NCBI RefSeq assembly: GCF_964213995.1
Contig: NC_135821.1
Location: forward strand, 77,562,001 to 77,626,000
Origin: Mustelus asterias
Lineage: Eukaryota
Length of the DNA: 64,000 nt
Direction: 5' to 3'
The notes below the pieces were generated by a model. That model worked only from the letters and a program-made list of their open reading frames with translations. It was not told the origin of the DNA and searched no databases. This document shows positions 27,248-55,234 of this stretch, piece after piece. The position numbers and the translations under genes were made by a program. Numbering within the stretch: position 1 is the stretch's first letter; each line of letters begins with the position of its first letter.

Positions 27248-27772
27248 TTCAGGGTTTTAGATATCTGGACCATTGGGATCTCTTCCGGGGCAGGTGGGAC
27301 CTGTACAAGAAGGACAGGTTGCATTTAAACTGGAAGGGCATAAATATTCTGGCCGGGAGGTTTGCTAGTGTCACACAGCAGGATTTAAACTAGTTTGGCA
27401 GGGGGGTGGGAATCAAAGCAAAGGTGAATTAACTGAAGGGGAACTAGAGAGTAGGGCCAGTCAGACTCGGAGAAAGAGCAAGCAGGGTGTGGTTGCTGAT
27501 CAAAGAGGGTCTGGTGGACTGAAGTGCATTTATTTCAATGCAAGAAGTGTAACAGGTAAAGCAGATGAACTTACAGCTTGGAACTATGATGTTGTTGCTA
27601 TTACAGGGACTTGGTTATGGGAAGGAGGTGGTATTGGGGTTCTTGAGAAACATTAAGGTAGCCAAGTCCCCAGGGTCTGATGGGATATACCCCAGAATAC
27701 TGAGAGGGGCAAGAGAGGAAATTGCTGGGGCCTTGAGAAATCTTTGTATCCTCACTGGCTACAAGGGAGGTC

Positions 27773-27926
27773 ATGATGTGGAGATGCCGGCGTTGGACTA
27801 GAGTAAACACAGTAAGAAGTTTAACAACACCAGGTTACCTGAAGAAGGGCCTTGGGGCTCCGAAAGCTTGTGTGGCTTTTGCTACCAAATAAACCTGTTG
27901 GACTTTACTGGTGTTGTTAAACTTCT
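27773..27926. mobile_element. Young PLE-terminus fold-back insertion with a 13-bp TSD
   Basis: TSD taca[a/g]gggaggtc at 27760-27772 and 27927-27939; inversion junction caggt-t-acctg at about 27831-27841. Confidence 0.9.
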
Positions 27927-28091
27927 TACAGGGGAGGTCCCAGAGGATTGGAGGTTGTTCCTTTGTTTAAGAAGGGTAGCAAGGATAATCCAGATAAATA
28001 CAGGCTGGTGAGCCTTATGTCAATGGTAGGGAAATTATTGGAGCGGATTCTTCGAGACAGGATTTACTCCCACGTGGAAATAACCGGAAGT

Positions 28092-28447
28092 CATAGAATC
28101 ATAGAAATCATAGAAACCCTACAGTGCAGAAAGAGGCCATTTTGGCCCATCGAGTCTGCACCGACCACAATCCCACCCAGGCCCTACCCCCATATCCCTA
28201 CATATTTACCCGCTAATCCCTCTAACCTACGCATTTCAGGACCCTAAGGGGCAATTTTTAGCATGGCCAATCAACCGAACCCGCACATCTTTGGACTGTG
28301 GGAGCACCAGAGCACCTGGAGAAAACCCACGCAGACACGAGGAGAATGTGCAAACTCCACACAGACAGTGACCCAAGCCGGGAATCGAACCCAGGTCCCT
28401 GGAGCTGTGAAGCAGCAGTGCTAACCACTGTGCTACCGTGCCGCCCT
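28092..28447 (-). mobile_element. HE1-type V-SINE, full length, young
   Basis: Near-identical reverse complement of 63252-63596; (TTCTATGA)n-type tail; about 40 bp of host CR1 is missing at the site compared with 61890-61970. Confidence 0.92.
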
Positions 28448-29676
28448 CACTAACTTGATTGAGTTTTTCGAGGAAGTGACAAAGATGATTGATGAGGGTA
28501 GGGCAGTGGATGTTGTCTACATGGACTTCAGTAAGATCTTTGACAAGGCAGACTGGTGCAGAAGGTGAAGTCGCATGGGATCAGAGGTGAGCTGGCAAGG
28601 TGGATACAGAACAGGCTCGGTCATAGAAGACAGAGCGTAGCAGTGGAAGGGTGCATTTCTGAATGGAGGGCTGTGACAAGTGGCGTTCCTCAAGGATCAG
28701 TGCTGGGACCTTTGCTAAAAATGATTTGGAGGAAAATGTAACTGGCTTGATTAGTAAGTTTGTGGATGACACAAACATTGGTGGATTTGTGGATAGCGAT
28801 GAGGGCCATCAGAGGATACAGCAGGATATAGATCAGTTGGAGACTTGGACAGAGGGATGGCAGATGGAGTTTAATCTGGACAAATGTGAGATAATGCATT
28901 TTGGAAGGTCTAATACAGATAGGAAATATACAGTAAATGGCAGAACCCTTACGAGTTTTGATAGGCAGAGGGATCAGGGTGTACAGGTACACAAGTCACT
29001 GAAAGTGGCAACACAAATGGAGAAGTTAGTCAAGGTGGCATACGGCATGCTTGCCTTCATCGGCCAAGGCATTGAGTTTAAAAATTGGCAAGTCATGTTG
29101 CAGCTTTATAGAACCTTAGTTAGGCCGCACTTGGAATATAGTGTTTAATTCTGGTTGCCACACTACCAGATGGATGTGGAGGCTTTGGAGAAGGTACAGA
29201 AAAGATTTACCAGGATGTTGCCTGGTATGGAGGGCATTAGCTATGAGGAGAGTTTGGAGAAACTTGGTTTGTTCTCACTGGAACGACGGAGGTCGAGGGG
29301 CAACCTGACAGAAGTCTACCAGATTATGAGGGGCATGGACGAATGGACAGTCAGAAGCTTTTTCCCAGGGTGGAAGAGTCAATTACTAGGTGGCACAGGT
29401 TTAAGGTGCGAGGGGCAAGGTTTAAAGGAGATGTACGAGGCAAGTTTTTTGTTTTACACAGAGGGTGGCGGGTGCCTGGAACTCACAGCTGGGGGAGGTA
29501 GTGGAAGCAGATACAGTAGTGACTTTTAAGGGGCGTCTTGACAAATACATGAATAGGATGGGAATAGAGGGATGTGGTTCCCGGAACGGTAGGGGGTTTT
29601 AGTTCAGTCGGGCTGCATGATCGGTGCAGACTTGGAGGGCTGAAGGGCCTGTTCCTGTGCTGTAATTTTCTTTGTG

Positions 29677-29752
29677 ACTCATGCCAGGAATCGAACCCGG
29701 ATCCCTGGTGCTGTGAAACAACAGTGTTAACCACTGTGCCACCATGCCGCCC
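29677..29752 (-). mobile_element. V-SINE tRNA-like head fragment
   Basis: Reverse strand gggcggcatggtggcacagtggttaacactgttg...gggttcgattcc. Confidence 0.75.
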
Positions 29753-30364
29753 AAACTTGCAATGTCATGACACTATTTACTATGGGAAAAGTTAATAGGA
29801 AAAAAAGTAATTGCAAAATATTGTTCTGAAATAAGAATAAAATATCAGTTCAGATTTTTATTTTGTGCTGGGAAATCCAGACACCAATTGATCATTCCTA
29901 GGCCCATTAATTTCTTACCTCCCCATCAATGTTTCCTTCCACCCAGGTTTCATCTTGGGATCTTTCAATGTGTTTAAGACAGTAGTATTTAAATACAAGT
30001 TGTTTTTGTTGCATTAGCTAATCACCAGTTCTTGATTTATCCCATCATCTGTTGCTCTCAACTTGGTGTAATGTAGTGTGGACCCCTAACCCTTCAATTA
30101 CATTACTCAACAAAATATACCCAAGGCAAGGGAAATATGGCATCTGCTGCAGGATGCAAGGAAACCATAAGATGATTAATTTGAATAGAGTGAAGTTCCC
30201 ATTCATAAACCAAATCAAGTTTTAACACTTTCTCTTTGGGTGAGCAAAATGCTGAACCATGTAACAGAAGGCATGGACATTTTTCAACACTTTAATTGAC
30301 AACTGAATACCACAAGTGGGACCATTTTCACTGAGAAATCAGCCCGCAGTGGAGTCAGCTGGCA

Positions 30365-30700
30365 TAGGAAGATTTCACAGGAGAGTGACCAGATAAAACT
30401 TAGCACTGAGCCACAAAAAGCAACATTAGGACCAAAACAGGTATGTTTTAAGGAGCACCATAAAGGAGGGAAGCGAGGTAGAGAGGTGGAGAGGCTTAGA
30501 GACGAAATTCCAGACCTTGGAGTCTCAGTGGCTGAAAGTGCAAGGGTCCCTGACGGAAACATTGCAGTGTAGGGGAGGCCAGAATTGCAGGGATCGATGC
30601 TCTTGTTGGGTTATAGGACTGAAGGAGGTTACACAGATAGGGAAGCCCCCTCCCATGGAAGTATATTAAAATGAGGATGAGAATTTTGAAATCGAGCCAC
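30365..30700 (-). mobile_element. L2 LINE 3' fragment
   Basis: Reverse-complement match to 17150-17400 (aaattccagacc, gctgaaag, ccagaattg). Confidence 0.65.
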
Positions 30701-33700
30701 AGTTTATTCCAATGGATCCATTTTTAAAGGTTGTACAATTCTTATTTACACTTTGTCAATTTATATGGCTTAACTGCGGTTGTCTATGCACATGTCAATT
30801 TCCAAACTCGCCGACATTCTGCAAGAAGTTCAAATAGATATGCATACACATTAAACACATGGCTGGTAAACTTGCATCATAGTCTATTGGCAAGTTTGAT
30901 CATTTTCCCCTTCACACAATTGCTCCCCTGGATGCCACCCAGGAGAGATTGGATTTATCAAGTCTGGAAATGACAAATACATGGATGAGGGTTTTGACAG
31001 TTAATAGGCCAAAGCAGGAAGGTGATTGTTACTACTACTGCTAAAATAGGAACACAGCTCTGAAATATGACATGGGAGGCTGTGGCATAGTGGTAATTTA
31101 ATTGGACTAGTAGTCCAGAGGCTGTGGCTAACATCGTATGAGTTCTAATCTGTGAAAGTTAAATCTAATCAATGAATCTGAAATTAAAAGCTGGTCCAAT
31201 GGTGACCATGAAACCATCACCGATTGTTGCAAAACCCTTCTGGTTCACTGATGCACTTTAGGGAAGGAAATCTGCCATTCTTACCTGGTCTGGCCGACAT
31301 ACGACTCCAGACCTACAACAATGTGGTTGAATCTTAAGTGGCCCCTGAAATGGCCAATCAAGCCTTCAGTTGTATCAAACTGCTACAAAGTCTGCAAAAA
31401 GGAATGAAATCGGACAGACCACGCAGCATCGACCTAGGTACTGGAAATGACAACAGCGCACACAATCCTGTCAACCCTGCAAAACCTGGAGCCTTGTGCC
31501 AAAACTGGGAGAGTTATAGCACAGACAAGACAAGAAACAGTATGACATAATAATACTCATGGAATCATACCTTATGCCCCAGACATCACCACCAACATCC
31601 CATTGACAGGACAGACCAACCAGAGGTGGCAGCAAAGCATTATACAGTGGGGGTGGGAGTTGCCATAAGTGCCCTCAACATTGACCCAGGACCCCATGAA
31701 ATCTTATGGTATCAAGTCAAACACGGGCAAGAAAACCTCCTGCTGGTTATCACTTACTGTCTCTGCACCCTCCACTCAGCTGATGAATCAGTACTCCTCC
31801 ATGTTGAACACTACTTGAAAGAAACACTGAAGGTGGCGAGAACATAGAATGTACATTGGGTGGGGAACTTCAATGTCCATCACCAAGGGAGGCTCAATAG
31901 TACCACTACTGACTGAGCTGGCTCAGTGTTAAAGAATATAGATGGGTCTTCAGCAGGTGGCGAGGGAGCAACAAGAGAGGAAATCCCACTCAACCTCGGC
32001 TTCATCAATCTACCTGTTGCAGATGCATCTGTCCATGACAATATTGGTAGGACTGACCACCACACAAACTTTGTGGAGATGAAGTCCTGGCTTCACAATG
32101 AGGACACCCTTCATCACTGAATCGTATAGTGTGGCACTACCACCTTGCTAAATGGATAGATTTCAAATAGATCTTTCAACTCAAGACTGGGCAACCATGA
32201 GGCGCTATGAGCCATAGCAGAATTGAATACAACCACAACCTGCAACCCCATGGCCTGGCGTATCCCCCACTCTATCATTATCAAGCTGGAGGAACAACGC
32301 TGATTCAGTGAAGAATGCAGAATGGCATGCCAGGCGCAAAACCAGGCAGATCTAAAAATGGAGTGTTAACCCGGTGAAGTTACAACACTTGCGTGCGAAA
32401 CTCTGGAAGCAGCATTTGATAGACACAGCTAAGCAATTCCATAACCAATGGGCCAGATCTAAGCTTTGCAGTACGAGCATATCCAGTCATAAAATAATGG
32501 TGAACAATGAAACACTTAACTGAAGGAGGAGGTGCTGCAAATATCCCCACCTTTGATGTGCAAAAGACAAAGATGAAAGATTTGCAGCCATCTTCAGCTC
32601 GAAGTGCTACATGGATGATCCATCCTGGTCTCTTTCTGAGATCCCCCACGTCACAGATGACAGTCTTCAGCCAATTTGATTCACTCCACTTGATGTCAAA
32701 GAACAGCTGAAGGCTATGGGCCCCAACTACATTCTGACAATAGAACTAAAGTCCTATGCTCCAGAACGAGCCATTCCCTTAGCTATCTACCTGGCAATGT
32801 AGAAAATTACCCAGGTATGCCCTGTCCACAAAAAGCAAGACAAATCCAACTGACCAATTACCACCCCATCAGTCTACTCTCGATCTTTGGCAAAGTGATG
32901 GAAGGTGTCAACTACAATATTATCAAGTGGCACTTACTCAGCAATAACCTGCTCACTGAAGCAGAGTTCGAGTTCAGCCAGGGCCACTCAGCCCCTGATC
33001 TCAGCTTAGGTCCAAACTTGGACAAAAGAGCTGAATGCAAGAGGTAAGGTGAGAATGACTGCTCTTAATATCAAGGCAGCATTTGATCAAGTGTAGCATC
33101 AAGGTGCTCTAGCAAAACTGAAGTCAATGGGAACTGGGGTCAGGACGGTGCAGAAACTTTCCAATGGTTATAAAGTCATACTTTGTACAAAAGAAGATGG
33201 CTGTGGTTTTTAGAGGTCAATTATCTGAGTCCCAAAACAAGAGTTCCTTCAGGTAGTGTCCTCGGCATAACCATCTTCAAGTATTTTGTCAATGACATTC
33301 CCTCCATCAAAAAGGTCAGAAGTGAGGATTTTTGCAGGTAATTGCAAAATATTCAGTCAGCATCATTCACTACTCCTCAGATGTTGAAGCAGTCTGTGTC
33401 CACGTGCAGCAAGATTTGGACAACATTCGGGCTCGGGCTGACAAGTGGCAAGTAGCATTTGCACCAGATAAATGTCAGGCAATGACACAATGAACAAGAA
33501 AGAATCTAACCCTCACCCCTTGACATCCGATGGCATTATCATTGCCGAATCCCCATCAACATCCTGGGGGTTACCATATGTTAACATATATACATGGATA
33601 GAAAGCTTAAGGACATCATCACTGCAGAGCAGCTGGTGTGCAGCAGCAGTTCCTTCTAACTGACATAGCACTCAGCCTGGCAGCGAGTTGACATACTGGT

Positions 33701-33814
33701 CAGACATAATGAACAGTCTCAGATCATGCAACATGGCATGGGTCAATCCTTGACATCCTGGTCAGATTGCATCTGAGAGTGTAGAAACCACAATGTGCTG
33801 ACCTCAGAAGATAA

Positions 33815-33970
33815 ATGCAAAAATCTTACAGTCGCGCTGATGGCACACCCCTGCCATGGGTTTCCCAGTGGTGAACGGTGTGTTCAATAGGAAATCCCGT
33901 TGACAATAAAGTCCCGTTACCAACAACACTCGGCCTCCTGCCGCAGAGAGGGAGAAAAATCCTGCCCATA
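33815..33970. mobile_element. MITE-like element
   Basis: Ends gagaaaaatcctgccca, the reverse complement of the gggcaggatt terminus at 5887. Confidence 0.45.
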
Positions 33971-35051
33971 GTGCAGAGATAATGCTCAAATAAAAAGTTG
34001 GTAAGCAGACGGATCCCTGACGGTGAGTTTGCAGCACATAATGAGTCAGTTCAGTGAATGGGACAGCGCATCGAGAGGTCCAGCACCGGACCGGGTTAGC
34101 TCAATAAGGCAAGGCAAGTGGCCAGGGTGGGGCCGGATCAAGAGTGAGTGAATGTCAGTCAAACAAAAGAAAAACAGAACAACCATCATAAGAACTGGGC
34201 CACAGAAGGTTGTGATCATTGGTGGCTTCAGGACTTGCTGAACAACAAACTGAATGAAACAAGGAGGAAGATCAAAGGGATATTTTCAAAATTCAAAAAT
34301 TCCCCAAGTTAAATTGGGATGCAACTGACCTACTATCAGAGTTCAAAATGTTTAAAGAGCATGCAGAGCTTTTGTTTCTTGATCCACGTGTTTGAACCAG
34401 AACAGCAAGCCATAGAAATTTGACTAGTGTTTGGGAATGAGGGTCTGCAAAAGCTGAACATGTCAAGATTGACATAAAAAGAGCAGCTACCAGATCCCCA
34501 AAAGATGGACTACATTGGAAGACCGGTTCAGAATCAGGTTAAACTTTCGCTTTCATGTCATTTTGTCAACAGCTGACAGAATCAACAGGCCAATTTGTTA
34601 GCAGATGTAAAGAAAGGAGTACATCATGTATTTTTTCAGATGAAGAGCTGGCAAACAAAAAGTTGGTGCTTCCCAAGATCTTCTAGACAAGCCCAAAATG
34701 CATAGCATTAAACAACTACTCAAAGATCAACATATGTATGAAGCAATATTAGCAGGTCGATGAATCTTACAAGTCCTGAGTACAACCCCAATTGTTGACG
34801 CTTTTACTAGAACATTAGAACCTAGCAAGACATGTAGAAAGTGACCGTCTGAGTGGACTAAGGAAATGCCCAGCTTTCCATCAATTCTGCAAAGCATGTG
34901 GGAGAAAGGGCCATTGACAGCAGCACTGCACTAGCTCAAAGGCTGATGCAGCTACAAAGAGCTATGCATTGATCCAAATGGACCAGACACAACAGCTACG
35001 CTCAAGCAATAAGAATGACTGTCTGGTATCCCATCTGAAACATATCCATCA

Positions 35052-35350
35052 TTTATTTATTTTTCAATTTTATTTATTAGTCACAAGGAGGTTGACATCC
35101 ACACTGTAATGAAGTTACTGTGAAAATCCCCTAGTTGCCACACTCCGGCGTCTGTTAGGGTACACTAAGGGAGAATTTAGCATGGCCAATGCACCTAACC
35201 AGCACATCTTTCAGACTGTGGGAGGAAACTGAAGCACCCGAAGGAAACCCACGCAGACATGGAGGAGAACGTGCAAACTCCACACAGACAGTGACCCAAG
35301 CTGGGAATCGAACTCAGGCTGGCACTGTGAGGCAGCAGTGCTAACCACTC
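35052..35350 (-). mobile_element. V-SINE with the alternative tail, inserted in the Gypsy relic
   Basis: Same tail as 27019-27247 plus V core and partial head (gcagtgctaaccact). Confidence 0.85.
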
Positions 35351-37131
35351 AGGTCACCGAAAAACCAGAAAATGATGATGACAAAGAGACGAACAGCAAA
35401 GACATATTACACACCCAATCTCGTGGAAAACAAGGTGTCATCGCACCATCCAAAGTGTTTGCTAAGATTCAAATTATCTGCCCTAAGTTAGTTGTTGGTT
35501 ACTCATTATTAGCCAAGATTGACACGGGGCAAGTGACAACATACTAGCCCTGCAAATTCTAAAAGACATGAATCCACAGATGTGGAAAGCCATGGCAAAA
35601 CCTACTACTGCACAATTTTCAGCTTACAATGATTCACTAATTCCATATATTCCTGGAGTGCAAATATAAACAATCCTCCTGGGTATCACAGATGTTCCAT
35701 GTCATCGAGACTAAAGGCCCAGCAATTGTAGGTCTACCAGTATGCCGTGAACTCATACTAGCGATAATCCAAGGAATTCGTAAGACCTCATATAGCATAT
35801 CCCACCATATTATGATGTAAAATACACCAACTGTTCATAAGGGATTGTGCAAACACATTGTGGGTTCACTTATTAATTCTAGGCCCATGTGAACACATAT
35901 GGAGAGAAAGCTTGAGGACTTCAGAACTGCAGGGTTGAGTCTGCTGTGTTCTGTTACAGCCAGAAGTGAAACGAAGGCTGGATCATATGACACACTTCCC
36001 TTAAAGTGATGTCATGCTGCTATCCCTTAAAGACATATTACAACCACTACCTGTAATCTCCTCCAATTCTCACACCATCCTGACATGGAACTATATCGCC
36101 ATTGTTTCACTGTTGGTGGGTCAAAATCCTGGAACCTACTTGCTAACGACACTGTGGGTGTTCCTAAAATACATGGACGGCAGTGGTTCAAGAAGGCAGC
36201 ATATCAACTCCTGAAGGGTAATTAGGGATGGATGGGTAATGAATGCCGGCCTAGCCAGTTATGCCCACATCCCTTGAATTTAAAAAATGCCACTTTGATG
36301 CAGTAGCAAATGACTTAGTTTTTTGAAAGCCGAATCACTGAACCTCTTACCACTTTGGACATTACAATATTCTTTCATGGGACTCATCTCCTGAAAGAAT
36401 TCTAAAAATTTGGTTCAATTCATATCTGATTAATTGATGGTTCTGTGATTACTCTTCAAGTGGCTCAATAGTATACATCATCTATGAGTCATCTGTATTT
36501 TCTGAGTGGAATGTCTGTGGAATCAGTTTTAATAATATTATGTAACATTTTTGTCAAACGTTATTTGAGAAACAAAGTAACAGTGAATAACAGAATATTG
36601 TAATTTCACAGAGGTCTTGTGTCTGAATCAAGTACAGATTGATTAACATCCCTTTGTCTGCTAGCTAAAGGCTCCTAAGTACTCTGAGGTTGTGTAGTCC
36701 AAACCCAATCCTTAATAAATAGAAACTTACAGCAGGAAAATTGCTAATAACTCGCTACAATTTGGCAATTTTACTTTTGAAAGAAAAGACAAGTATTTGA
36801 TATGGGAAGTGAAAGGTCACACTAATACAATAGGGGGGGGCTCCTAGGTGGGGAATTCAGAAAGAGAAAGCATGAAATAAGCAAAGCTATTTAAGCCTAT
36901 TATGCCGTGGTTTCTTCAACAGATGATATGCAATCTTTGTTACATTGGATGAGGTCCAAACCATCTAAATTGCTTGAGAGATTTAAAATACATTGTTGGA
37001 TAGTGGAGTGGGAACTTCATCTGCTTACAGATCTACAATGCACAATGTAGGTAGGTTTAATGCTATAAACAAGAATGTATCTGACCCACAGCACAAGTAG
37101 ATGCCTGAAATATAACAAATGACATAAAATT

Positions 37132-37711
37132 TGCTGCAGGAAAGAATGCCCTGAGGCGTGGTACGTCGACGAGACCATGCAGACGCTTGGACAGCGGATG
37201 AACGGACACCACGCAACAATCACCACGCAACAATCACCAGGCAGGAGTGTTCTCTTCCTATCGGGGAACACTTCAGCAGTCAAGGGCATTCAGCCTCTGA
37301 TCTTCGGGTAAGCGTTCTCCAAGGCAGCCTTCAAGACGCATGATAACTCAGAATCGCCGAGCAGAAACTGATAGCCAGGTTCCGCACGCGTGAGGAGGGC
37401 CGCAACCAGGATCTTGGGTTGCAAAATCCTACTAACTGTCCTGGCTTGAGATAATTCACACCTCTTTAACCTGTGATCATCCCTCTCTCCACTCGCATTG
37501 TCTGTACTTGTAAAGACTCATATTATAACCATTATCTTGCAATTGCATCTCTGTCTATATATGCCATGTTTGTGAACATAACTCTCCACTCACCTGAGGT
37601 AGGAGCAGCGCTCCGAAAGTTCATGATTCCAAATAAACCTATTGGACTTTAACCTGGTGTTGTGAGACTATTTACTGTGCCCACCCCAGTCCAACGTCAG
37701 CATCTCCACAT
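37132..37711 (+). mobile_element. Penelope-like element (older subfamily), 5'-truncated: decayed GIY-YIG C-terminal half plus pLTR/tail
   Basis: CPEAWYVDET, CSLPIGEHFS; TSD cataaaatt at 37123-37131 and 37712-37720; hammerhead-like ctgaggta...gaaag at 37594-37625. Confidence 0.9.
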
Positions 37712-40700
37712 CATAAAATTCAGGGGTCACCAAAATCTCAAGGTTCACACAATGTGACTAATCATTGAAACTACACTCTCTACTTCTAACTTTATTTGAA
37801 CATTGGAATCATGTCCAATTAGCCCCGTACTATTACCATGTGTATAACTGCGAGATTAACAGTCTGTCCATGCCTCTTTAAAGCAAACTGCCACATGACC
37901 ACAATGCCATGAGATACAAACTTTGAACAATGCAACTAGCATCCTGAATAGAACCTCCTTCCCCAAAAATAACTGGTGGGATCATTTAATTGTGAGAAAT
38001 CCCATTTAGAATGGTAAAAAGACAATGGTAACATGATTGAAATAATAAATGAAATGTTAACAACCATTCTCTAACTACTGCTACACAGTTCAGTTCTGGA
38101 ATATTTGGATACAGACATCTGAATTTTTACATGTGCTTAAAATTATTTTCTTTCCTTTTATTTTTTGATAGAAAGTACATATGTCGATCAAGGATGTAAA
38201 TTGTGGACAATCTCATGGATTCTCAGCAATATTATTAAGTCACTGTTGGACAAAGAGTCAAGGTACCTGTTGAGTATACCCTACTAGAAGCTAATGGTAT
38301 CCTAAGATATACCTTTTTCTTAAAAAAGAAAACCCATCTGGAACAATTTATAACTTGAATTTTGTTTTTAATGGATAATGTGAACTTCTTATGAGATACT
38401 CCATCCTTCCCTATTCCTTTATCTATACAAACATAACACAACTGTTTCAACGACAGATGGTAGTAGTTGTTTTTGGCCAATGGCCTTCCAAATGATTCAA
38501 CACTAAGCTTTGGAGTCACAGTATGCTGAAACTAGTCCTTGCATTTACAATTGGCTGGGGAGGTGCAAATGTGATTCTGCTTAAACCAAGTAAAGCCATT
38601 TTAGCTTAACACAAGAAACATTAGAGGTCCTGGAAGTGAAGAGGCCATTCAGCCCATCAAACCCCTGCATCAAGCACCTTACATCTCCTATTATAACACT
38701 CAGCTACGTTTTGAATGTTGCATACATTCTTTCCAATATACTGAATTTAAATTTATTTTTGACTAATTTATGGGTATTGCAAGAGAGTGAAACCAGGTCA
38801 GAACCACTTCTGAACATGTTGCAAAATACACCAACCACTTTGCAACATTTGCCCAATATGTCATTATGACTCAGGCAACACTTAATATATTTATGACCCC
38901 ATTTGTGGAGGTATGCTACATGAAATACCCAATTTAAACTACTTTTTTCTCATTGTAACCTTCTTTCTCGATAGCTGCCAGGATGCAATAATAAACGAGA
39001 CATCACAGAACATCACAAAATATTGTAATGGAGGCACACCTGAGGCTATCATGAACTTGCAACCAATGCAAGACTGAAATGTGACACTGAAACTCAGCAC
39101 CTTTGTGCCCCTTTTGTGGAACTGCCCAACTGCAGGCCATTTTGAAAAGGATAACAGGCCACCATAAAAGAGCAAGCCTCTTCCAAAACTCTAAAATACA
39201 GACCTGAACACAAAGCCAGACTGCTACTTCAAAAGCTTTTAACAACCCTCTGGATTACTTTAGAAGCATTGGTAAAATAAATCCTATGAATTCTGATGTC
39301 TTGTAGAAATGAAACTGCAAGGTTATCTATGTGGAATTTTGTTTTAACCATTGGAATGTTTTGAAGATTATACTGTTAATTAAATATGTCCTTATAAGAG
39401 CCAACAAAACCCAGGAAGAGTACACAGGGAAATCACCACATCTTGAAGTTGAGCCACTTATCCTTGCTTGTCTGTCTGTTTGTTTTATGAAATGCAGCAT
39501 GTACCAACATACATATTGAATATTATTCATGCCTCTCATTGTCAATGCTCACTGGCAAGCTGAGGCTTAGGTTCACAGGACTCTGAAAATTTAGCTCAAA
39601 GGCTGAATATTTCAACAAGGTTAATTTCACTTAAGTTCAGACACTAGTTATCAAGATTGTTTATTCTACCCCAACCACCGCCCCCAACCTCCAGAAAAAT
39701 AATGGTGCTCTCTAGAATTTGCTTGTGCAGTTTCAAAACTTACGACTGCCAGGTAAAGACTTCAACAATTATGCTGCTCACAATAGATTGCTTAATGTCA
39801 GGAAAAACTTCAAGTTGAATACCTGAGAAACAATTTAATAAATATATAGCAAATCAGTATGGAAAACTTGAATTAGTCATTTTTAGCAGAAAAGCTTATG
39901 ATTTATTGTCAAGCTCTTTCCTCCATATGGAAAGCGTGACACAACCAGCTGCAGTAGCATGGACTGAAGCAATATTGTACAAGACCGAGTAAACTTGCCT
40001 GGACTGAACAGCACATTTTATAAGACGTCACTATAAATTAAAGAAGAACATGGTATGTAGAACCACTTTGTTAACACCCAAGCTTTAAATATAAACAGAG
40101 CACGCATTTCAGAAACCCTCCCCACCTCAAGGACCAGGTTTTTTGGCTTATGGTCTGCAGGAAATTCCTAATGATCTTCATCATGTGTTCAGAAAAAAAA
40201 TCTTTCCTGCCAAGACTACCCTAAAGGACATATGTTGAACATTCTGCACACATTGTATGCTTGCAATCCTTCTGCCTTTCTCAAAAATCCTGTGTCCTCT
40301 GTCCACATCACCCATGTTAGAGAAACTGAGTCCACCGCTGAAGGGCTAAACATGATCGCAAATGGCCATCTCTCAGCAGTTATTATTTTTGTCCAATAAG
40401 CCTTTACATTTTTTATTACACCAGGTTGTTGTTTAACGACATGAATTTCTTCCATATTTGCTGGTTTTCCCTGGCTAAAAGCCAGCCTGCTAGGCTGTCA
40501 GCTTCCTGCTGTGTCTGAATCACGTGGCAGTGAGTGCAACCTAGTAACACCCAAAGTACTTGCTGCTCGATGCTGTTCAGTCATTAGAGACTAACAATTC
40601 TTTTGAATGCTCAGCAATACACAGCACTTGGTGTTCTTCCACTGTGGACAGATGTGAAATGTTCCAACACAACGGTTCCTTAAGAATTTAGATTTGTATG

Positions 40701-45402: not shown

Positions 45403-46525
45403 AAAAGGCTACCAAACAAAGAACAAAGAACAATACAGCACAGGAACAGGCCCTTCGGCCCTCCAAGCCTGCGCCGCTCATGTGCCCACTAGACCATTCT
45501 TTTGTATCCCTCTATTCCCAGTCTGTTCATGTGGCTATCTAGATAAGTCTTAAACGATCCCAGCATGTCCGCCGCAATCACCTTGCTTGGCAGTGCATTC
45601 CAGGCCCCCACCACCCTCTGTGTAAAATACATCCCCCTGACATCTGTGTTGCCCCCCTCACCTTGAACCCGTGACCCCTTGTGTTCGTCACCTCCGACGT
45701 GGGAAAAAGCTTCCCACTGTTCACCCTATCTATGCTCTTCATTATTTTATACACCTCTATTAGGTCGCCCCTCATCCTCCGTCTTTCCAGTGAGAACAAC
45801 CCCAGTTTACCCAATCTCTCCTCATAGCGAAGACCCTCCATACCAGGCAACACCCTGGTGAACCTCCTCTGTACTATCTCCAAAGCCTCCACGTCCTTCT
45901 GGTAGTGTGGCAACCAGAACTGGATGCAGTATTCCAAATGTGGCCTAACCATCGTACTATACAGCTGCAACATCATATGCCAACTTTTATATTCCATGCC
46001 CCGTCCAATAAAGGCAAGCATGCCATATGCCTTCTTGACCACCCTCTCCACCTGTGCTGCCACTTTTAAGGATCTGTGGACTTGTACCCCCAGGTCCCTC
46101 TGTGTGTCTATACTCCTGATGGTTCTGCCATTTATTGCATAGCTCCCCCCTTACATTAGATCTACCGAAATGCATCACTTCGCATTTATCTGGATTAAAT
46201 TCCTTCTGCCATTTCTCCGCCCAATGTTCCAGCCTATGTATATCCTGCTGTATTCTCTGACAACGTTCATCACTATCCGCAACTCCAGCAATCTTCGTGT
46301 CGTCCGCAAACTTACTGATCACACCAGTTACATCTTCCTCCAAATCATTTATAAATATCACAAACAGCAGAGGTCCCAGTACAGAGCCCTGCGGAACACC
46401 ACTAGTCACAGACCTCCAACTGGAAAAAGACCCCTCCACTGCTACCCTCTGTCTTCTATGGCTAACACAGTAAGAAGCTTAACAACACCAGGTTAAAGTC
46501 CAACAGGTTTATTTGGTAGCAAAAG

Positions 46526-46571
46526 CCACACAAGCTTTCGGAGCTCTAAGCCCCTTCTTCAGGTGAGTGGG
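46526..46571 (-). ncRNA. Minimal hammerhead ribozyme motif (left arm)
   Basis: Same motif as 42043-42088. Confidence 0.75.
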
Positions 46572-46774
46572 AATTCTGTTCACAAACAGAGCTTATAAAG
46601 ACACAGACTCAATTTACATGAATAATGGTTGGAATGCGAATACTTACAACTAATCAAGTCTTTAAGAAACAAAACAATGGGAGTGGAGAGAGCATCAAGA
46701 CAGGCTAAAAAGATGTGTATTGTCTCCAGGCAAGACAGCCAGTGAAACTCTGCAGGTCCACGCAACTGTGGGAG

Positions 46775-47092
46775 TTACAAGTAGTGTGACATGAACCCAA
46801 TATCCCGGTTGAGGCCGTCCTCATGTGTGCGGAACTTGGCTATCAGTTTCTGCTCAGCGACTCTGCGCTGTCGTGTGTCGCGAAGGCCGCCTTGGAGAAC
46901 GCTTACCCGAATATCAGAGGCCGAATGCCCGTGACCGCTGAAGTGCTCCCCAACAGGAAGAGAACAGTCTTGCCTGGTGATTGTCGAGCGGTGTTCATTC
47001 ATCCGTTGTCGCAGCGTCTGCATAGTTTCCCCAATGTACCATGCCTCGGGACATCCTTTCTTGCAGCGTATCAGGTAGACAACGTTGGCCGA
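46775..47092 (-). pseudogene. PLE GIY-YIG endonuclease domain (C-terminus of the PLE ORF; RT absent)
   Basis: SANVVY.IRC...C....YIGET...LRQRMNEH...HF...E...GLN: GIY-YIG motif with CCHH residues; the S.NVVY form resembles Neptune-clade PLEs. Confidence 0.9.
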
Positions 47093-47591
47093 TACGCTGC
47101 AAGAAAGGATGTCCCGAGGCATGGTACATTGGGGAAACTATGCAGACGCTGCGACAACGGATGAATGAACACCGCTCGACAATCACCAGGCAAGACTGTT
47201 CTCTTCCTGTTGGGGAGCACTTCAGCGGTCACGGGCATTCGGCCTCTGATATTCGGGTAAGCGTTCTCCAAGGCGGCCTTCGCGACACACGACAGCGCAG
47301 AGTCGCTGAGCAGAAACTGATAGCCAAGTTCCGCACACACGAGGACGGCCTCAACCGGGATATTGGGTTCATGTCACACTACTTGTAACTCCCACAGTTG
47401 CGTGGACCTGCAGAGTTTCACTGGCTGTCTTGTCTGGAGACAATACACATCTTTTTAGCCTGTCTTGATGCTCTCTCCACTCCCATTGTTTTGTTTCTTA
47501 AAGACTTGATTAGTTGTAAGTATTCGCATTCCAACCATTATTCATGTAAATTGAGTCTGTGTCTTTATAAGCTCTGTTTGTGAACAGAATT

Positions 47592-47638
47592 CCCACTCAC
47601 CTGAAGAAGGGGCTTAGAGCTTCGAAAGCTTGTGTGGC
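47592..47638 (+). ncRNA. Minimal hammerhead ribozyme motif (right arm)
   Basis: CUGAAGA 47601-47607, stem II ggggc/gcuuc, GAAA 47624-47627, palindromic AAGCUU, predicted cut after 47631, GUG pairing with CAC 47598-47600. Confidence 0.75.
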
Positions 47639-48867
47639 TTTTGCTACCAAATAAACCTGTTGGACTTTAACCTGGTGTTGTTAAACTTCTTACTGTGTTT
47701 ACCCCAGTCCAACGCCGGCATCTCCACATCATGACTTCTATGGCTAAGCCAGTTCTCCACCCATCTAGCTAGCTCACCTTTTATCCCGTGAGATTTAACC
47801 TTTTGCACCAGCCTGCCCTTCGGCCCTCCAAGCCTGCGTCTCTTGTCAAACGCTTTACTAAAAACCATATAGACGACATCTATGGCCCTTCCCTCGTCAA
47901 TCGTTTTTGTCACCTCCTCAAAAAACTCAACCAAATTCGTGAGGCATGACTTCCCTCATACAAAATCATGCTGTCTATCGCTAATGAGATTATTCAGTTC
48001 TAAATGCGCATATATCCTATCTCTAAGAATCTTCAACAACTTCCCTACCACGGACGTCAAGCTCACCGACCTATAATTACCCGGGTTATCCTTGCTACCC
48101 TTCTTAAATAACGGGACCACTGGTCCTAAATTTACAAGTTCCTCTTTTCATCAAGTGATCAGCATATGCAATGATTTCCAAGTAGGGTAGTGAAGGTAAA
48201 ATTCCTAGAATTGTTTAAGAAGCAGTTGGATAAAGCAAAGAGATCTTTCTGGTTGGACAAAGGTAGAACGTTGATACAGTTACTGTTTACAAAATGTCAA
48301 CAAATCAGGAAAACTGGTCATTAAACAAAATGAATCAATTTTTCTCATGAGACATTAATCTCAAGGTTTTCTGGATTTTTGTATTCACTACATCTTAGAA
48401 GATGCCAGTATAAGTCAATAGCCTGTGATTTGATGACAAAGTTAAAAATCACCTGTCATTAACATTGAAAAATAATTTCTTCCTCATATTGTCTGATTTT
48501 AATCCAGTTGACAAAGTGGCCAACATTTTGTAAACTGGGTTAGTGAGCCAGGTCAGTACGTTATGGTCATGGTCATATTAACATATTTTAAAAATTTGTT
48601 ACAGATTTCTAAGTTCATGCAAGTGAAAAGCTACTCATGGGGATTGAGAACTAGCTTCAGTACCAAGCGCCCTCCAGTAAGAACTTTACTACAGCAGTAT
48701 AGAGTAAAGTGCACTATATTCTGCAGCAATTAACACCGTGCTTTAATTGTGCCTTTAAAGAGCAACTAAACAACAACTTGTATTTATATAGTGCCTTTAA
48801 TGTAATAAAATGTTCCAAGGTGCTTCACAGGCACATTATAAAACAAAATATGACAACAAGGCACTGA

Positions 48868-49866
48868 TTATTTTTATTCATTAATGGGACATGGCCATCA
48901 GTGGCCAGGCCAAGATTTATTGCCCATCTTTAACACTCTTAAAATGGCGATGGTAAGCAAACTTCATCACCCACTGCAGTTCATCTGATGGAGGTACATT
49001 CACAGTGCTGTTAGGGAGGGAGTTCCAGGAGTTTGGCCAAGCGACAGTGATAGAACAGTGATATATTTCCAATTCAGGATTGTGATTGACTTGGAGGGAA
49101 ACTTGCAGGTGGTAGCGTTCCCATGCATCTGTTGCCCTTGTCCTTCTAGCTGATAGAGGTTGAGGGTTTGGAAGATGGTGTCAAAGGAGCTTGGTAATAC
49201 CATTGAATGTCAATGTGATATTGTTAGATTCTCTCTTGTTGGATACAATCATCGCCTGCCTGACACTTGTGTGGCATGAATGTTATTTGCCAGTTGTCAA
49301 CACCAGCCTGAATATTGTCTGGGTCTTGCTACACATGCACATGGACATAGACATGGATGGTTTGTATCTGAGGTTTTGAAGACAGAGCTGAACATAGTAC
49401 GTTCTGAGGATTGCACAGTTACCTTACAGAATGTCATTGACAAAACGGCTGAAGATGGTTGTGCCTAGGACACTATCCTGAGGAACTCCTGCAGTGATAC
49501 TCTGGGACTGAGATGATTAACAAACAACCACAGCTATCTTTCTTAATGCTAGGTATGGCTCCAACCAGTGGAAAGTTTTCTCACTGATTGCCATTGAATT
49601 TACTTTTGCTAGCACTCCTTGATGTCACATTTGGTCAAATATTGCCTTGATATCAAGAGCAGTCACTCTCACCTCATGAGTTCAGCTCTTTTGTCTATGT
49701 TTGGACCAAGGCTGTAATAGGGTCAGGAGCTGAGTGGCCCTGGCAGAATCCAAACTGATCATTAGTGCGCAGGTTATTGCCGAGACAAGGACCACTTGAT
49801 AGCACCGTCAATGACCCCTTCCAAAATTTTGATGATGTTTAGATAGATTGATGGGGCGATAATTGG
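48868..49866 (-). mobile_element. Family-B LINE, 3' portion with deletions
   Basis: Tail tttttattcattaatgggacat...atttattgcccatc; reverse strand AGVPQDSVLG and LDIKAIFDQM. Confidence 0.8.
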
Positions 49867-49867
49867 T

Positions 49868-50090
49868 CATAGGGCAATGTTAGACAGAAGACTATGAACT
49901 TGAACAAATAGGTGGGACTTAAAGAGTGTCTGAAAGAGGGAAAGAGAGGTTGAGAGGTTTAGGGAAGGAATTCCAGAGCTTAGCCCACAGGCAGCTGAAG
50001 ACAGGGCCACCAATTGTGGAGCAATTAAAATCAGGGATGGGCAGAATGCAGGAATTAGAAGAGGGCAAATACCTTGGAAAGTTGTGGGGG
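49868..50090 (-). mobile_element. L2 LINE 3' fragment
   Basis: GGPVFSCLWAKLWNSFPKPL; homologous to 17150-17350. Confidence 0.75.
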
Positions 50091-50854
50091 AGAACAAAGA
50101 ACAAAGAACAAAGAAAATGACAGCACAGGAACAGGCCCTTCGGCCCTCCAAGCCTGCACAGAACATGCTGCCCGACTTAACTAAAACTCCCTACCCTTCC
50201 GGGGACCATATCCCTCTATTCTCATCCTATTCATGTACTTGTCAAGATGCCCCTTAAAAGTCACTACCGTATCTGCTTCCACTACCTCCTCCGGTAACGA
50301 GTTCCAGGCACCCACCACTCTGTGTAAAAAATCTGCCTCGTACATTTCCTTTAAACCTTGCCCCTCACACCTTAAACCTATGCCCCCGAGTAATTGACTC
50401 TTCCACCCTGGGAAAAAGCTTCTGACTATCCACTCTGTCCATGTCTCTCATAATCTTGTAGACTTCTATCAGGTCGCCCCTCAACCTCCGTCGCTCCAGT
50501 GAGAACAAACCACGTTTCTCCAACCTCTCCTCATAGCTAATGCCCTCCATACCAGGTTACATCCTGGTAAATCTTTTCTGTACCCTCTCCAAAGCCTCGA
50601 CATCCTACTGGTAGTGTGGCGACCAGAATAAAACACTATATTCCAAGTGTAGCCGAACTAAGGTTCTTATAAAGCTGCAACATGACTTGCCAATTTTTAA
50701 ACTCAATGCCTCGGCCGATGAAGGCAAGCATGCCATTGTTCAACCGGAGCAAGGCAGAGAGGAGCGATTTGTAGCTGGAGTAAAAAGAGTAAGGGATTGA
50801 CTTTTTTTCCCTTACTTTTTCGTGGGGTTTCTTTTTTTTTTCCTAGTTTAAGTG

Positions 50855-51055
50855 AAAAGCGGAAGTAGGCCGGCCGCGGGATGACCTGGGAAGGAATTTT
50901 TTATTTTTTTTTTATAAGCGCGCGGGAGGTTTAAAAAGCAGGCCGCACTATCCAGCGGGCAACGTCGTTAGCGGGCAGCGAAGTGAGCAGGTAGCAGAGT
51001 GAGGGCTGAAGGGCTTTGGTTCAACGGGCTTAGGCGGAAACGGGCAAGGCAGGGT
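50855..51055 (+). promoter_or_regulatory. CpG-rich CR1 5' UTR, likely internal promoter
   Basis: Dense CpG in a CpG-poor window; ETS-like GCGGAAGT at 50859-50866. Confidence 0.45.
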
Positions 51056-51107
51056 AGGTTTAGTTCTTAGTTTTTAAAAACTTAAAAACAAAACCAATCA
51101 AATAAGG

Positions 51108-52046
51108 ATGGAGGGTCAGGTGATGTGTTGTTCCTGCATGATGTGGGAGCTGGTGGACCCCATTGTGGTTCCCAGTGAACATGTCTGCAGTAAGTGTTGG
51201 TTGCTTGAGGAACTCCGGCTCAGGGTTGATGAGCTGGATTCTGAGCTTCGGACACTGCGACACATCAGGGAGGGGGAGAGATACCTGGATGCTGTGTTTC
51301 AGGAGGCAGTCACACCCCTTAGACTAACTAACTTGAATTCAGTCAGTGGTCAGGGGCAAGAGGGTTTGGCTGCGAGTGAGGCAGGTAGTGGGATCCAGGA
51401 GGTAGAGTTCCAGGAGCCTCAGTCCCTGAACCTGTCCAACAGGTTCGAGATTCTTGTTCTGTGTGTGGACGGGAACGGGGAGTGCAGGGAGGATGAGCAA
51501 ACTGACCACAGCACCATGGTACAGGGAGCCGTTCAAGTGGGGGGAGAAAAAAGAAATGTAGTCGTAATTGGGGAGAGTATAGTTAGGGGCATTGACACTG
51601 TTCTCTGTGACCAGGATCGAGAATCCCGAAGATTGTGTTGCTTGCCTGGTGCTCGGGTCCAGGATATCTCATGTGGGCTGCAGAGGAACTTGGAGTGGGA
51701 GGGTAAAAATCCAGTTGTCGTGGTCCACGTAGGTACCAACGACATAGGTAGAACAGGAACAGAGGTTCTGCTACGGGAATATGAAAAGCTAGGAGCTAAA
51801 TTAAAAAGCAGAACCAAAAAGGTAATAATCTCTGGATTACTACCTGAGCCACGAGTGAATTGGTGCAGGGTCAATAAGATTAAGGAGGAAAATGCGTGGC
51901 TCAAAGATTGGTGTGGGAGGAATGGGTTTGAATTCATGGGACATTGGCACCAGTATTGGGGAAGAGGGGACCTGTTCCGATGGGATGGTATTCATCTGAA
52001 TCGTGCTGGGACCAGAGTCCTGGCGAATCATATAAGTCGGCTGTAG
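51108..52046 (+). CDS. CR1 ORF1p: Zn finger, leucine zipper and SGNH/GDSL esterase domain; open frame of 312 aa
   Basis: CxxC...CxxC (CCSC...CSKC); LEELRLRVDELDSELRTL; VIGESIVR (block I), HVGTNDI (block III), DGIH (block V). Confidence 0.9.
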   Translation: MEGQVMCCSCMMWELVDPIVVPSEHVCSKCWLLEELRLRVDELDSELRTLRHIREGERYLDAVFQEAVTPLRLTNLNSVSGQGQEGLAASEAGSGIQEVEFQEPQSLNLSNRFEILVLCVDGNGECREDEQTDHSTMVQGAVQVGGEKRNVVVIGESIVRGIDTVLCDQDRESRRLCCLPGARVQDISCGLQRNLEWEGKNPVVVVHVGTNDIGRTGTEVLLREYEKLGAKLKSRTKKVIISGLLPEPRVNWCRVNKIKEENAWLKDWCGRNGFEFMGHWHQYWGRGDLFRWDGIHLNRAGTRVLANHISRL

Positions 52047-52275
52047 ATAGGGCTTTAAACTAAATAGTGTGTGTTTGGGGGGGGGGGGGTTCAGTTGTAT
52101 GGAGAATTAGAAAATCAAAGGTAAAGGAGAGGGTAGGAATGCAGGTTAATGATGAGGACTTTCAACAAGTTAAAGGAGCCGAGGGCTCAGGAGAGGTTAG
52201 TAAAGTTTCCAGACCACGTAATAGAACAGAGTATAGAAGGTGGCAGGAATCTAGACCTCAGGCAGAGTAAAAAAG

Positions 52276-55234
52276 GTGACAAGCATGAGAAGGGAGGTGG
52301 TCAACACAGTGCAAGGAGATGGTCTGGGGAAGAATAACCAGTCTGTGACAGGAAGGGACGGAGCATGCAAACAAAGGAATGCACGTAGCATTCGAAACAA
52401 AGTGAATGAATTGACGGCACAAATCAGTGCAAATGGGTATGATCTAGTGGCCATTACAGAAACGTGGTTGCAGGGTGACCAGGACTGGGAACTAAATATC
52501 CAGGGGTATCAGACAATTCGGAAGGATAGACAGAAAGGAAAAGGAAGTGGGGTAGCTCTGTTAATTAAGGATATCAGGGCGGTAGTGAGAGATGATATAG
52601 GCTCTAAGGAGCAAAATGTGGAATCAATGTGGGTGGAGATAAGAAATAGTAACGGGAAAAAGTCACTGGCGAGCGTAGTCTATAGGCCCCCAAATAATAA
52701 CTTCAAGGTGGGGCGGGCTATAAACAAACAAATAACAGATGCATGTAAAAATGAAACAGCAATAATCATGGGGGATTTTAACCTCTATATTGATTGGTCA
52801 ACTCAAGTCGGACGCGGTGGACTTGAGGAAGTTCTTAGAATGCTGTTGCGATAGTTTCCTCGAACAGCATGTTCCAGAACCTACGAGGGAGCAAGCTATC
52901 TTGGATCTGGTCCTGTGTAATGAGACAGGTAAAATTAATAATCTCCTTGAGAGGGATCCTCTTGGAATGAGTGATCACAATATGGTTCAATTTCTAATAC
53001 AGATGGAGGGTGAGAAAGTAGGGTCCCAAACCAGTGTCCTCTGCTTGAACAAGGGGGATTACAATAGGATGAGGGCGGAGTTGGCTAATGTAGACTGGGA
53101 ACACAGACTAATTGGTGGAACAGTTGAGGAACAGTGGAGGATTTTTAAGGAGATTTTTCTCAGTACTCAGCAAAAATATATTCCAGTGAAAAAGGAGGAA
53201 TGTAAGAAAAGGGATAACCAGCCATGGATAACTAAGGAAATAAAGGAGAGTATCAAATTAAAGACCAATGCATACAGAGAGGCCAAAATTAGTGGGGAAC
53301 TAGAAGATTGGGAAGGCTTTAAAAAACAATAAAGAACTACTAAGAAAGCAATAAAGGAAAGATAGATTATGAAAGTAAACTAGCACAAAATATAAAAACT
53401 GATAGTAAAAGTTTTTACAAATATATAAAACGGAAAAGAGTGGCTAAAGTAAATGTTGGTCCCTTAGATGATGAGAAGGGGGATTTAATAATAGGAAACG
53501 AGGAAATGGCCGAGGCCTTAAACAAGCTTTTTGTGTCAGTCTTCACAGTGGAGGACACAAATAGCATACCAATAATTGACGGTCATGGGACTGTCGGGGG
53601 TGAGGACCTTAAAACGATCACTATTACTAAAGAGGTAGTGCTGGGTAGGCTAATGGGACTAAAGGTAGACAAGTCCCCTGGTCCAGATGGAATGCATCCC
53701 AGGGTACTAAAAGAAACGGCAGAAGCAATAACAAATGCATTAGTTGTAATTTATCAAAATTCACTGGACTCTGGGGAGGTCACAGTAAGAAGTTTAACAA
53801 CACCAGGTTAAAGTCCAACAGGTTTATTTGGTAGCAAAAGCCACACTGGGGAGGTGCCAGCTGATTGGAAAACAGCTAATGTAACACCACTGTTTAAAAA
53901 AGGAGGTAGACAAAAGGCAGGTAACTACAGGCCGGTTAGCTTAACATCCGTAGTTGGAAAAATGCTGGAATCTATCATTAAGGAAGAAATAGCAGGACAC
54001 CTGGAAAAGAATGGTTCAATCAAGCAGACGCAGCATGGATTCATGAAGGGATAGTCGTGTTTGACTAATTTACTGGAATTTTTTGAGGATATAACGAATG
54101 CGGTTGACAGAGGGGAACCGATGGATGTGGTGTATTTAGATTTCCAGAAGTCATTCGATAAGGTGCCTCACAAAAGGTTGCTGCATAAGACAAAGGTACA
54201 CCGAGTTGGGGGTAAAGTGTTAGCGTGGATTGATGATTGGCTATCTAACAGAAAGCAGAGAGTTGGAATAAATGGGTGCTTTTCCGGTTGGCAATCAGTG
54301 ACTAGTGGCATGCCGCAGGAATCAGTGCTGGGGCCTCAACTATTTACCATATACATAGACGATCTGGAGGAGGGAGCCGAGTGTAGGGTAAAAAAGTTTA
54401 CGGATGGCACAAAGATGAGTGGGAAAGCAAATTGCGTGGAGGACACAGAGTCTGCAGAGAGATTTGGATAGGCTAAGTGAGTGGGAAAGGATCTGGCAGA
54501 TGGAGTGTAACGTTGGTAAGTGTGAGGTTATCCACTTTGGAAGGAATAATAATAAAATGGACTATTATTTAAATGGTGAAAAATTACAACATGCTACTGT
54601 GCAGAGGGACCTGGGGATCCTTGTGCATGAATCGCAAAAACTCAGTTTGCAGGTGCAGCAGGTAATCAAGAAGGCAAATGGACTGTTGGCCTTTATCGAG
54701 AGAGGGATGGAGTATAAAAGCAGGGAGGTTATGCTGCAACTGTACAGGGTACTGGTGAGGCCGCACCTGGAATACTGTGTACAATTTTGGTCCCCTTATT
54801 TAAGAAAGGATATATTAGCTTTGGAGGGGGTACAGAGAAGGTTCACCAGGTTGATTCCGGAGATGAGGGGATTTGCTTATGAGGAGAGATTGAGTAGACT
54901 GGGCCTGTACTCATTGGAGTTTAGAAGGTTGAGGGGAGATCTTATAGAGACATATAAGATAATGAAGGGGCTCGACAGGGTAGAAGCAGCAAGGTTATTT
55001 CCACTTACAATGGAAACAAGAACTAGGGGGCATAGCCTCAAAATACGGGGGAGTCAATTGAGAACAGAGTTGAGGAGGAACTTCTTCTCCCAGAGGGTAG
55101 TGAATCTTTGGAATTCTCTGCCCAATGAAGCAGTAGAGGCTACCTCGTTAAATGTGTTTAAGTCACAGATAGATAGATTTTTAACCATTAAGGGAATTAA
55201 GGGTTATGGGGAGTGGGCGGGTAAGTGGAACTGA
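52276..55234 (+). pseudogene. CR1 ORF2 (APE endonuclease plus RT), disrupted by frameshifts, stops and a 65-bp PLE insert
   Basis: NARS, AITETWL, YRPP, GDFN, LDLVL, SDH; KSPGPDG, NYRPVSL, DFQKSFD, FTDG (mutated FADD). Confidence 0.92.
53781..53845 (-). mobile_element. 65-bp young PLE-tail insertion with a 10-bp TSD
   Basis: TSD ctggggaggt at 53771-53780 and 53846-53855. Confidence 0.92.

Follow-up and report, generated by a model that had tools for sequence, protein, structure and literature searches.

Insertions of a Penelope-like element in Mustelus asterias sit in a gapped palindrome that recurs at a hotspot in a CR1-type retroelement

Two insertions at the same codons of a CR1-type reading frame

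The window analysed here, a stretch of 64,000 nucleotides from Mustelus asterias (contig NC_135821.1, positions 77,562,001 to 77,626,000, in a genome of 3.68 Gb), contains two insertions of a Penelope-like element (PLE) at homologous positions in the reverse-transcriptase (RT) open reading frame 2 (ORF2) of CR1-type retroelements. The names CR1, A1 and A2 are labels carried over from a first-pass annotation of this DNA. The host is called CR1-type provisionally, on features that fit CR1, namely an RVT_1 match in Pfam, FADD and GVPQG motifs and a (TTCTTATG)n tail. That annotation had placed two PLE insertions at the same S-L-x-x-G-E-V-P codons, and both are confirmed. The two filled sites break the G-E-V/P codons, and an empty homologous site, SSLATGEVPEDW, of the form CTG-N16-CAG, lies in a second A2 copy at 61732-61753 on the forward strand.

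At site 1 the A2 host occupies 27622..29675 (forward strand) and carries frameshifts and an insert resembling a short interspersed element (SINE). The PLE insert covers approximately 27772-27926 and consists of two arms: a tail arm on the reverse strand (27772..27837), which is the shorter and comprises the 36-37-base tail and the start of the pseudo-long terminal repeat (pseudo-LTR), and an inverted core arm on the forward strand (27838..27926) that extends deeper into the element. Its identity to the reference copy is 93.7%. The flanking duplication is 12-13 bases long with one mismatch; on the forward strand its left copy, TACAAGGGAGGT(C), lies at 27760-27771/2, the following C being common to the element end, and its right copy, TACAGGGGAGGT(C), starts at 27927 (27927..27938 as 12 bases), the first three bases being common to the core end. 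Beyond these copies stand the half-sites of a gapped palindrome, CTG at 27755..27757 and CAG at 27941..27943, again on the forward strand. The SINE-like insert (28099-28445) breaks this host downstream of the PLE and has related copies at 63252-63596 and elsewhere.

At site 2 the A1 host (52528..55330, forward strand) has stops and frameshifts of its own. The insert, 65 bases at 53781-53845 on the reverse strand, is a single core arm that is 100% identical to the reference copy and the same as young copies. It is flanked on the forward strand by CTGGGGAGGT at 53771-53780 and 53846-53855, an exact duplication of 10 bases, or of 12 with one mismatch if the left copy is taken as 53769..53780; the half-sites are CTG at 53764..53766 and CAG at 53858..53860 (both forward strand). 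Because each duplication copies its own host variant, the two insertions are independent events, as had been claimed, and they also differ in structure and age.

The insertion target and the element

Insertions of this PLE sit in (C)TG-N16/17-CA(G), with about 12 bases duplicated, both inside and outside CR1. The sample behind this finding was blind to the host and combined 98 loci centred on the element end with 112 random 10-kb stretches. Of 303 PLE blocks in all, 265 lay at a sufficient distance from the ends of their loci and in 149 a duplication could be called; 94 were used, these being young (at least 88% identity) and outside both the window and 30 loci selected for the hotspot described below. 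Non-CR1 sequence received 74 of the 94 and CR1 the other 20; 70 came from the tail-anchored loci and 24 from the random stretches.

The target-site duplications are mostly 12-13 bases long, and two bases outside each insertion end stands an inverted half-site, c-T-G-k-c, whose T and G reach 0.95 after fitting, with a fitted spacer of 16 (0.66) or 17 (0.26) bases. Without fitting, TG-N16/17-CA is present at 59 of 74 non-CR1 and 18 of 20 CR1 sites, at 18 of the 24 sites from random stretches and at 15 of 34 older, more diverged copies, against a background of 4.3%. The fuller form CTG-N16-CAG occurs at 26/73 young sites and its N17 equivalent at 12/73 (background approximately 0.2% each). As to orientation, CTG..CAG was found at 39/94 sites and the three other arrangements at 0/94. 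Among non-CR1 junctions selected by their left half only, CA was where the motif predicts it in 9 of 12 (p ~1e-8); 20 loci had been fetched for this comparison, of which 12 had a clear right duplication and 7 did not, the twentieth being a minus-strand match. Host sequence ends two bases before CAG in 69 of 128 junctions and one base before it in 35, both half-sites are equally important at either end (16 vs 15), and the recognised target carries about 9-10 bits of information. Target and element overlap by at least two bases at 55 of 119 junctions, where 16% would be expected. Longer homology between target and element was considered as a guide to insertion and rejected, only overlaps of 1-4 bases being seen.

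The inserted element is abundant, with 35,398 genome occurrences of an exact 37-base piece of its end, and the 38 young PLE blocks in 1.12 Mb of random stretches correspond to about 125,000 young insertions genome-wide. The copy L031 has a single open frame of 915 codons with a Pfam match to RVT_1 and with YIDD; the closest named relatives of the element protein are shark proteins (81-94% identical), further relatives are found in turtles, ticks and amphioxus, and a structure model of the L031-type protein (predicted local distance difference test, pLDDT, 90) has telomerase RTs as its top three matches. Toward the C-terminus is a GIY-YIG region with the CCHH motif (VVYLIRCKKGC..WYIGET and two later histidines), which aligns with relatives, many of them carrying PF01541; the Pfam search of the element protein itself did not call a GIY-YIG domain. 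A zinc-finger linker, CX2-5CxxC, lies between RT and endonuclease (EN) as CHSNLCKTC and is present in 48 of 50 aligned sequences. The layout is that of endonuclease-bearing (EN+) PLEs, with pseudo-LTR, inverted arms and a tail, and the tail and core starts are about 36-37 bases apart. Near-full-length L031:5013-8338, with the open 915-codon frame, and L072:1896-5037, with inverted arms of 1.55 kb, both contain, close to where the ORF ends, a duplicated stretch of about 70 bases. A hammerhead-like CTGAAGA..CGAAA was seen by eye in the pseudo-LTR; Rfam gave no hammerhead match on 27700-28500, and folding (z=0.75) gave no confirmation either. An older, more diverged PLE subfamily is present in the window at 23283-23449 and 37133-37713. 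Elsewhere in the random stretches, L100, L122, L128, L129, L133 and L144 contain long open frames resembling LTR-retroelement pol genes.

A CX2-5CxxC linker between RT and EN marks the Neptune or Nematis clade (PMC8557442), and by the domain definitions of that source the element is, on its predicted domains, a Neptune-type EN+ PLE, with a linker that fits Neptune or Nematis. A Poseidon-type identity was entertained and dropped because the Penelope/Poseidon clade is without the linker zinc finger that this element has. The features that it has in common with the Neptune clade are a single ORF, a telomerase-like RT, a C-terminal GIY-YIG, the CCHH motif, the CX2-5CxxC linker, the tail, inverted arms and 5' truncation (PMC8557442). 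The bias described there for linker-bearing PLEs is toward microsatellites, whereas the present element uses spaced inverted half-sites of 2-3 bases in mixed DNA. More generally, the insertion biases described for PLEs concern AT-rich DNA or ATT, microsatellites, telomeres and ribosomal DNA (rDNA) (PMC8557442, PMC11167929, PMC3846280). No spaced palindromic PLE target was found in the literature covered, including passages of PMC2377424, PMC12602865 and bioRxiv 10.64898/2026.07.22.740005; Arkhipova 2006, Pyatkov 2004, Repbase/Dfam and supplements fell outside that scope and may note one.

Hotspot occupancy and host preference

The codon position shared by sites 1 and 2, hereafter hotspot A, is represented genome-wide by 681 filled junctions (194 core-left and 487 tail-left) and 3,532 empty sites, a raw occupancy of 16%. 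The first-pass annotation had proposed looking for peaks of PLE junctions along CR1, and this check showed a non-uniform distribution in which hotspot A is real. With a 75-base window anchored upstream, 99 of 100 junctions lay at the site among the matches listed (of 164), and with a 45-base window anchored downstream this was true of 100 of 100 among the matches listed (of 153), both read by eye and neither window having been picked for the site; the next 75 bases downstream contained 1 junction. Another control window gave 0 junctions, but its anchor was found in only 1 of 30 filled loci. The sole off-peak junction among the 100 listed, G000:C6:75704092-75704184, has CTG instead of CAG as its right half-site.

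Many of these junctions are letter-identical and one control junction is amplified on small contigs, as would be expected if they were copies of one or a few CR1-PLE chimeras propagated by CR1 retrotransposition or segmental duplication. We regard this explanation as extremely improbable. Of 30 fetched filled loci, 15 have a called duplication, and their inserts span 81-1,377 bases, so that the filled loci are separate events; the inserts also occur in both orientations and in several host variants, with private host changes in the duplications. The small contigs in question, C28-C46, repeat one PLE junction often, suggesting an amplified segment or a redundant assembly, and chromosome-scale contigs represent about three quarters of the assembly by sum.

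Occupancy differs between host types. A1 contributes 20 of 100 listed empty sites vs 4 of 200 listed filled sites, and the observed occupancy is about 19% for non-A1 sites vs 1.1-1.8% for A1 sites, so that in A2 these codons form a strong hotspot and in A1 a weak one. A second position in CR1, hotspot B (the W-L-x-x-R-x-Q-R-V codons), accounts for 6 of the 94 unselected insertions, at loci that include L001, L007, L008, L014, L044 and L050, and is commoner there than hotspot A. It is filled twice in the window at the same motif, by a two-armed PLE insertion at 46464..47731 and a second insertion at 55775..55946 (strand not assigned for either). All four CR1 insertions in the window, at hotspots A and B, are at CTG-N16-CAG; a PLE insertion at 56695..56758 (reverse strand), whose flanks had no CR1 match in the self-comparison of the window, is at CTG-N16-CAA. 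In the site-1 host, hotspot B (28604-28635) is empty and has CAG instead of CTG as its left half-site, a single case. Insertion pairs, each of two independent events, were also seen at homologous places in other repeats (L081:4898/L183:1592, L050:2179/L041:4998, L098:9485/L204:321 and L012:248/L019:1357), one of which is SINE-like.

Scored with a matrix of base counts at the 74 non-CR1 sites, hotspot A comes top among the 1,561 positions of the empty A2 copy (150 of 150 bootstraps), and hotspot B comes top in three other copies. The occupancy that the matrix predicts is 22% (11-41%) for the site-1/A2 sequence and 1.8% (0.7-5%) for the site-2/A1 sequence. CR1 ORF2 is found on both flanks of 11 of the 94 unselected young insertions vs 13.6% of random positions (p=0.76), and under this two-flank criterion the CR1 odds ratio at equal motif score is 1.0-1.2. 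Hotspot A receives about 0.5% of the approximately 125,000 young insertions, and with these shares neither the site nor CR1 ORF2 is a dedicated multicopy target. The description of CR1 as a highly repeated preferred target is therefore correct in that CR1 supplies many copies of a good target, and incorrect in that CR1 is not preferred as such.

A stronger form of the first-pass reading, that the element seeks CR1 itself through longer sequence, chromatin or transcripts and thereby disables a competing retroelement, is, in our assessment, very unlikely. The filling of about 19% of non-A1 site copies, the 6/94 share of hotspot B and the position of four of the eight PLE blocks of the window in CR1 ORF2, which covers 19% of it, are what such seeking would produce, as are a fivefold excess over pattern-matched sites and a one-flank association considered below. 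The two-flank comparison argues against it, as do the equal strength of the motif outside CR1, the filling of the homologous A1 site at only 1-2%, and hosts that seem to predate the inserts and carry damage of their own. In 23 of 23 filled A2 hosts examined, private stops, frameshifts or what looks like 5' truncation lie upstream, although some of this damage may postdate insertion, and median identity is 90.6% for hosts among themselves vs 94.5% for inserts. Inactivation of a live CR1 and parasitism of CR1 by the PLE therefore have little support.

The explanation of hotspot A by the motif must also be set against several unfavourable results. Fourteen of the 94 sites score below 3, and the fit that placed the half-sites for the "held-out" matrix had the 20 CR1 sites among its data. 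Under a one-flank criterion CR1 accounts for 20/94 insertions vs 15.3%, with a score-matched odds ratio of 1.8 (p=0.05). Non-CR1 sites matched for pattern (CTGGC-N10-GT-NN-CAG) show a tail-left occupancy of about 0.6% (0.14-1.4%) vs about 14% for hotspot A, an estimate that rests on 3/12 and on a count by eye of about 82 chromosome-scale matches; the gap expected from the matrix is 2.5-4-fold, which leaves about fivefold unexplained. Filled A2 copies have lost a half-site base only slightly less often than empty ones (6 vs 16 of 200, p=0.046), and for TG/CA alone the counts are 3 filled vs 8 empty (p=0.22), all by eye. Finally, the A1-type sites seem to be younger, 20 of 21 listed being identical, and their age may contribute to their low occupancy.

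The most likely additional factor behind the fivefold residual is pairing at the ends of both overhangs. At the A2 hotspot site, 2-3 bases match the tail start, and on the other strand 3-4 match the core or tail start. An account in which the motif sets cutting and hotspot A is boosted by 3-4-base pairing of the overhangs with element RNA, perhaps with shared permissive regions, is possible, although we lean somewhat against it. It would cover the residual, and it is in keeping with the general enrichment of overlaps and with junctions that contain element-shared bases (GGAGGT-CATGATG in almost every listed tail-left junction, CTTCTTAC-AGGGG in most core-right ones); the density of six young blocks in the 64 kb of the window vs 38 in 1.12 Mb points in the same direction. 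It is weakened in that the matrix alone gives 22% for A2, that the residual rests on 3/12, and that the control had already fixed the top-strand GT.

The pile-up at hotspot A most likely reflects a short code and not a hunt for CR1. The best explanation of the whole, which we consider quite probable, is motif-framed insertion, with a GIY-YIG endonuclease likely reading the half-sites and nicking, and with hotspot A resulting from a near-optimal A2 site present in thousands of older copies.

Insert structure and a possible route of integration

The structure of the inserts bears on how both ends are formed. Tail and core face outward at the two ends of 70 of the 94 inserts, tail with tail and core with core are each found in 0, and 24 inserts show one terminus; the 24 inserts from random stretches include 14 with tail and core and again 0 of either like pair, whereas among blocks without a duplication 2 are core with core. 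Between the two arms, 506 of 527 subfamily columns match, where 314 would be expected at random. Among 68 parsed two-arm inserts, 26 are near-symmetric, 20 have the longer core arm, 12 have the longer tail arm and 10 are mixed; this count left 15 of 83 unparsed as well as the 10 mixed, and other methods gave 24 vs 21, or 10, 26 and 50 tied (distorted by alignment breaks). Site 1 is among the 20 inserts with the tail on the shorter arm, and because of that position neither arm of those 20 can be a fold-back copy of the other. The pairing of tail with core and the 20/68 short tail arms therefore suggest priming at both cut ends, likely by a dimer.

A route consistent with these structures can be outlined. 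The GIY-YIG endonuclease would read each half-site and nick each strand two bases 5' of CAG, and the two nicks would leave 12-base 3' overhangs. Each overhang would then prime reverse transcription, aided by 1-4 bases of pairing with element RNA, one starting at the tail start and the other at the core start about 36 bases further in, probably on one RNA, and the two complementary DNAs would join mid-insert, which would produce the inverted arms. The simplest carrier is a protein dimer on one RNA, which would also explain the symmetry, and the linker zinc finger may recognise the half-site or determine the spacing. That Neptune-type PLEs integrate as a symmetric dimer, with two GIY-YIG domains on inverted TG half-sites 16-17 bases apart, a double-strand break that leaves 12-base 3' overhangs, and two RTs that prime from both overhangs on one RNA, one at either tail edge, is a proposal from sequence that we make tentatively and would not quite call likely.

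A core end beginning CACAG re-creates CTG-N16-CAG at the filled junction (46449-46470 and 53764-53785 in the window), and this is common at hotspot A. The idea that the core end always rebuilds the target was rejected as a rule, 3 of 48 core junctions being in register and the peak lying 2-4 bases short.

Priming at both ends also meets contrary evidence. Near-perfect palindromes make up 26 of the 68 two-arm inserts and are explained equally well by fold-back or double priming, and the anole protein PAc prefers ATT and starts without homology in vitro (PMC11167929). A homodimer prediction for residues 1-330, run without an alignment, scored 0.16 vs a mark of 0.32 and speaks neither for nor against a dimer. 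The palindromes would also suit a sequential process in which a monomer nicks and primes once and the second arm or nick follows by fold-back or template switching, with no dimer. Both arms being of one subfamily and the 24/94 inserts with one terminus fit such a process, self-priming is a published proposal for the inverted repeats of PLEs (PMC3846280), and the homing enzymes with GIY-YIG are described as nickases that act as monomers (PMC8557442). We nevertheless find it rather unlikely, given the 20 of 68 inserts whose tail on the shorter arm allows no simple fold-back, the equal demand for a half-site at both ends and the fixed spacing of 16-17 bases.

The Poseidon protein PAc of the anole cuts and extends both target strands, has two adjacent RT starts that bound the tail and was modelled as a dimer (Frangieh et al. 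2024, PMC11167929), and the double-priming proposal fits these data. The two adjacent starts bounding the tail, the cutting and extension of both strands and the modelled dimer are the likenesses to the present element and the route proposed for it. The differences are that PAc prefers ATT in AT-rich DNA, shows no homology at the start and belongs to a clade without the linker zinc finger (PMC11167929). No spaced palindrome, overhang length or tail-with-core pairing is reported in the passages available of the PAc report (PMC11167929).

Hotspots of one element inside another are already known; the main finding here is a target rule, symmetric and spaced, in a Neptune-type PLE that likely primes from two ends. 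R2 and elements that target other transposons insert repeatedly at one multicopy position. Spike-moss PLE-X in 28S rDNA, like other site-specific retroelements, shows the same repeated insertion (PMC8557442). Such elements have one long conserved target, unlike the present one, about 99% of whose insertions lie outside hotspot A. A closer likeness is to nested transposable elements of the human genome, where single positions in older repeats collect young elements and the piles reveal integration motifs (Levy et al. 2010, PMC2836564), although that work covers Alu, hAT, ERV1 and MaLR, with no PLE in the passages available. DNA transposons and retroviral integrases likewise have a symmetric consensus at the target, centred on a duplication of fixed length and read as the sign of a multimeric enzyme, but these are DDE enzymes acting on DNA donors, unlike a target-primed retroelement with a GIY-YIG nuclease (PMC2577343, PMC4422553).

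The choice of target by PLEs, its cutting, and the formation of the tail and inverted arms are described as open in PMC8557442 and only outlined in PMC11167929. The present element offers a defined substrate, (C)TG-N16-CA(G), with predicted nick positions, a near-intact protein and on the order of 10^5 genomic insertions, and the two-ended priming model is open to direct test by a published in vitro assay. Where one element shows a sharp peak within another, a short motif can be the cause, and parasitism of element by element does not follow. If the model is true, a single dimer mechanism would account for three features of PLE insertions, namely the tail, the inverted repeats and the length of the duplication, and a target-primed retroelement would gain a target rule like that of a restriction enzyme.

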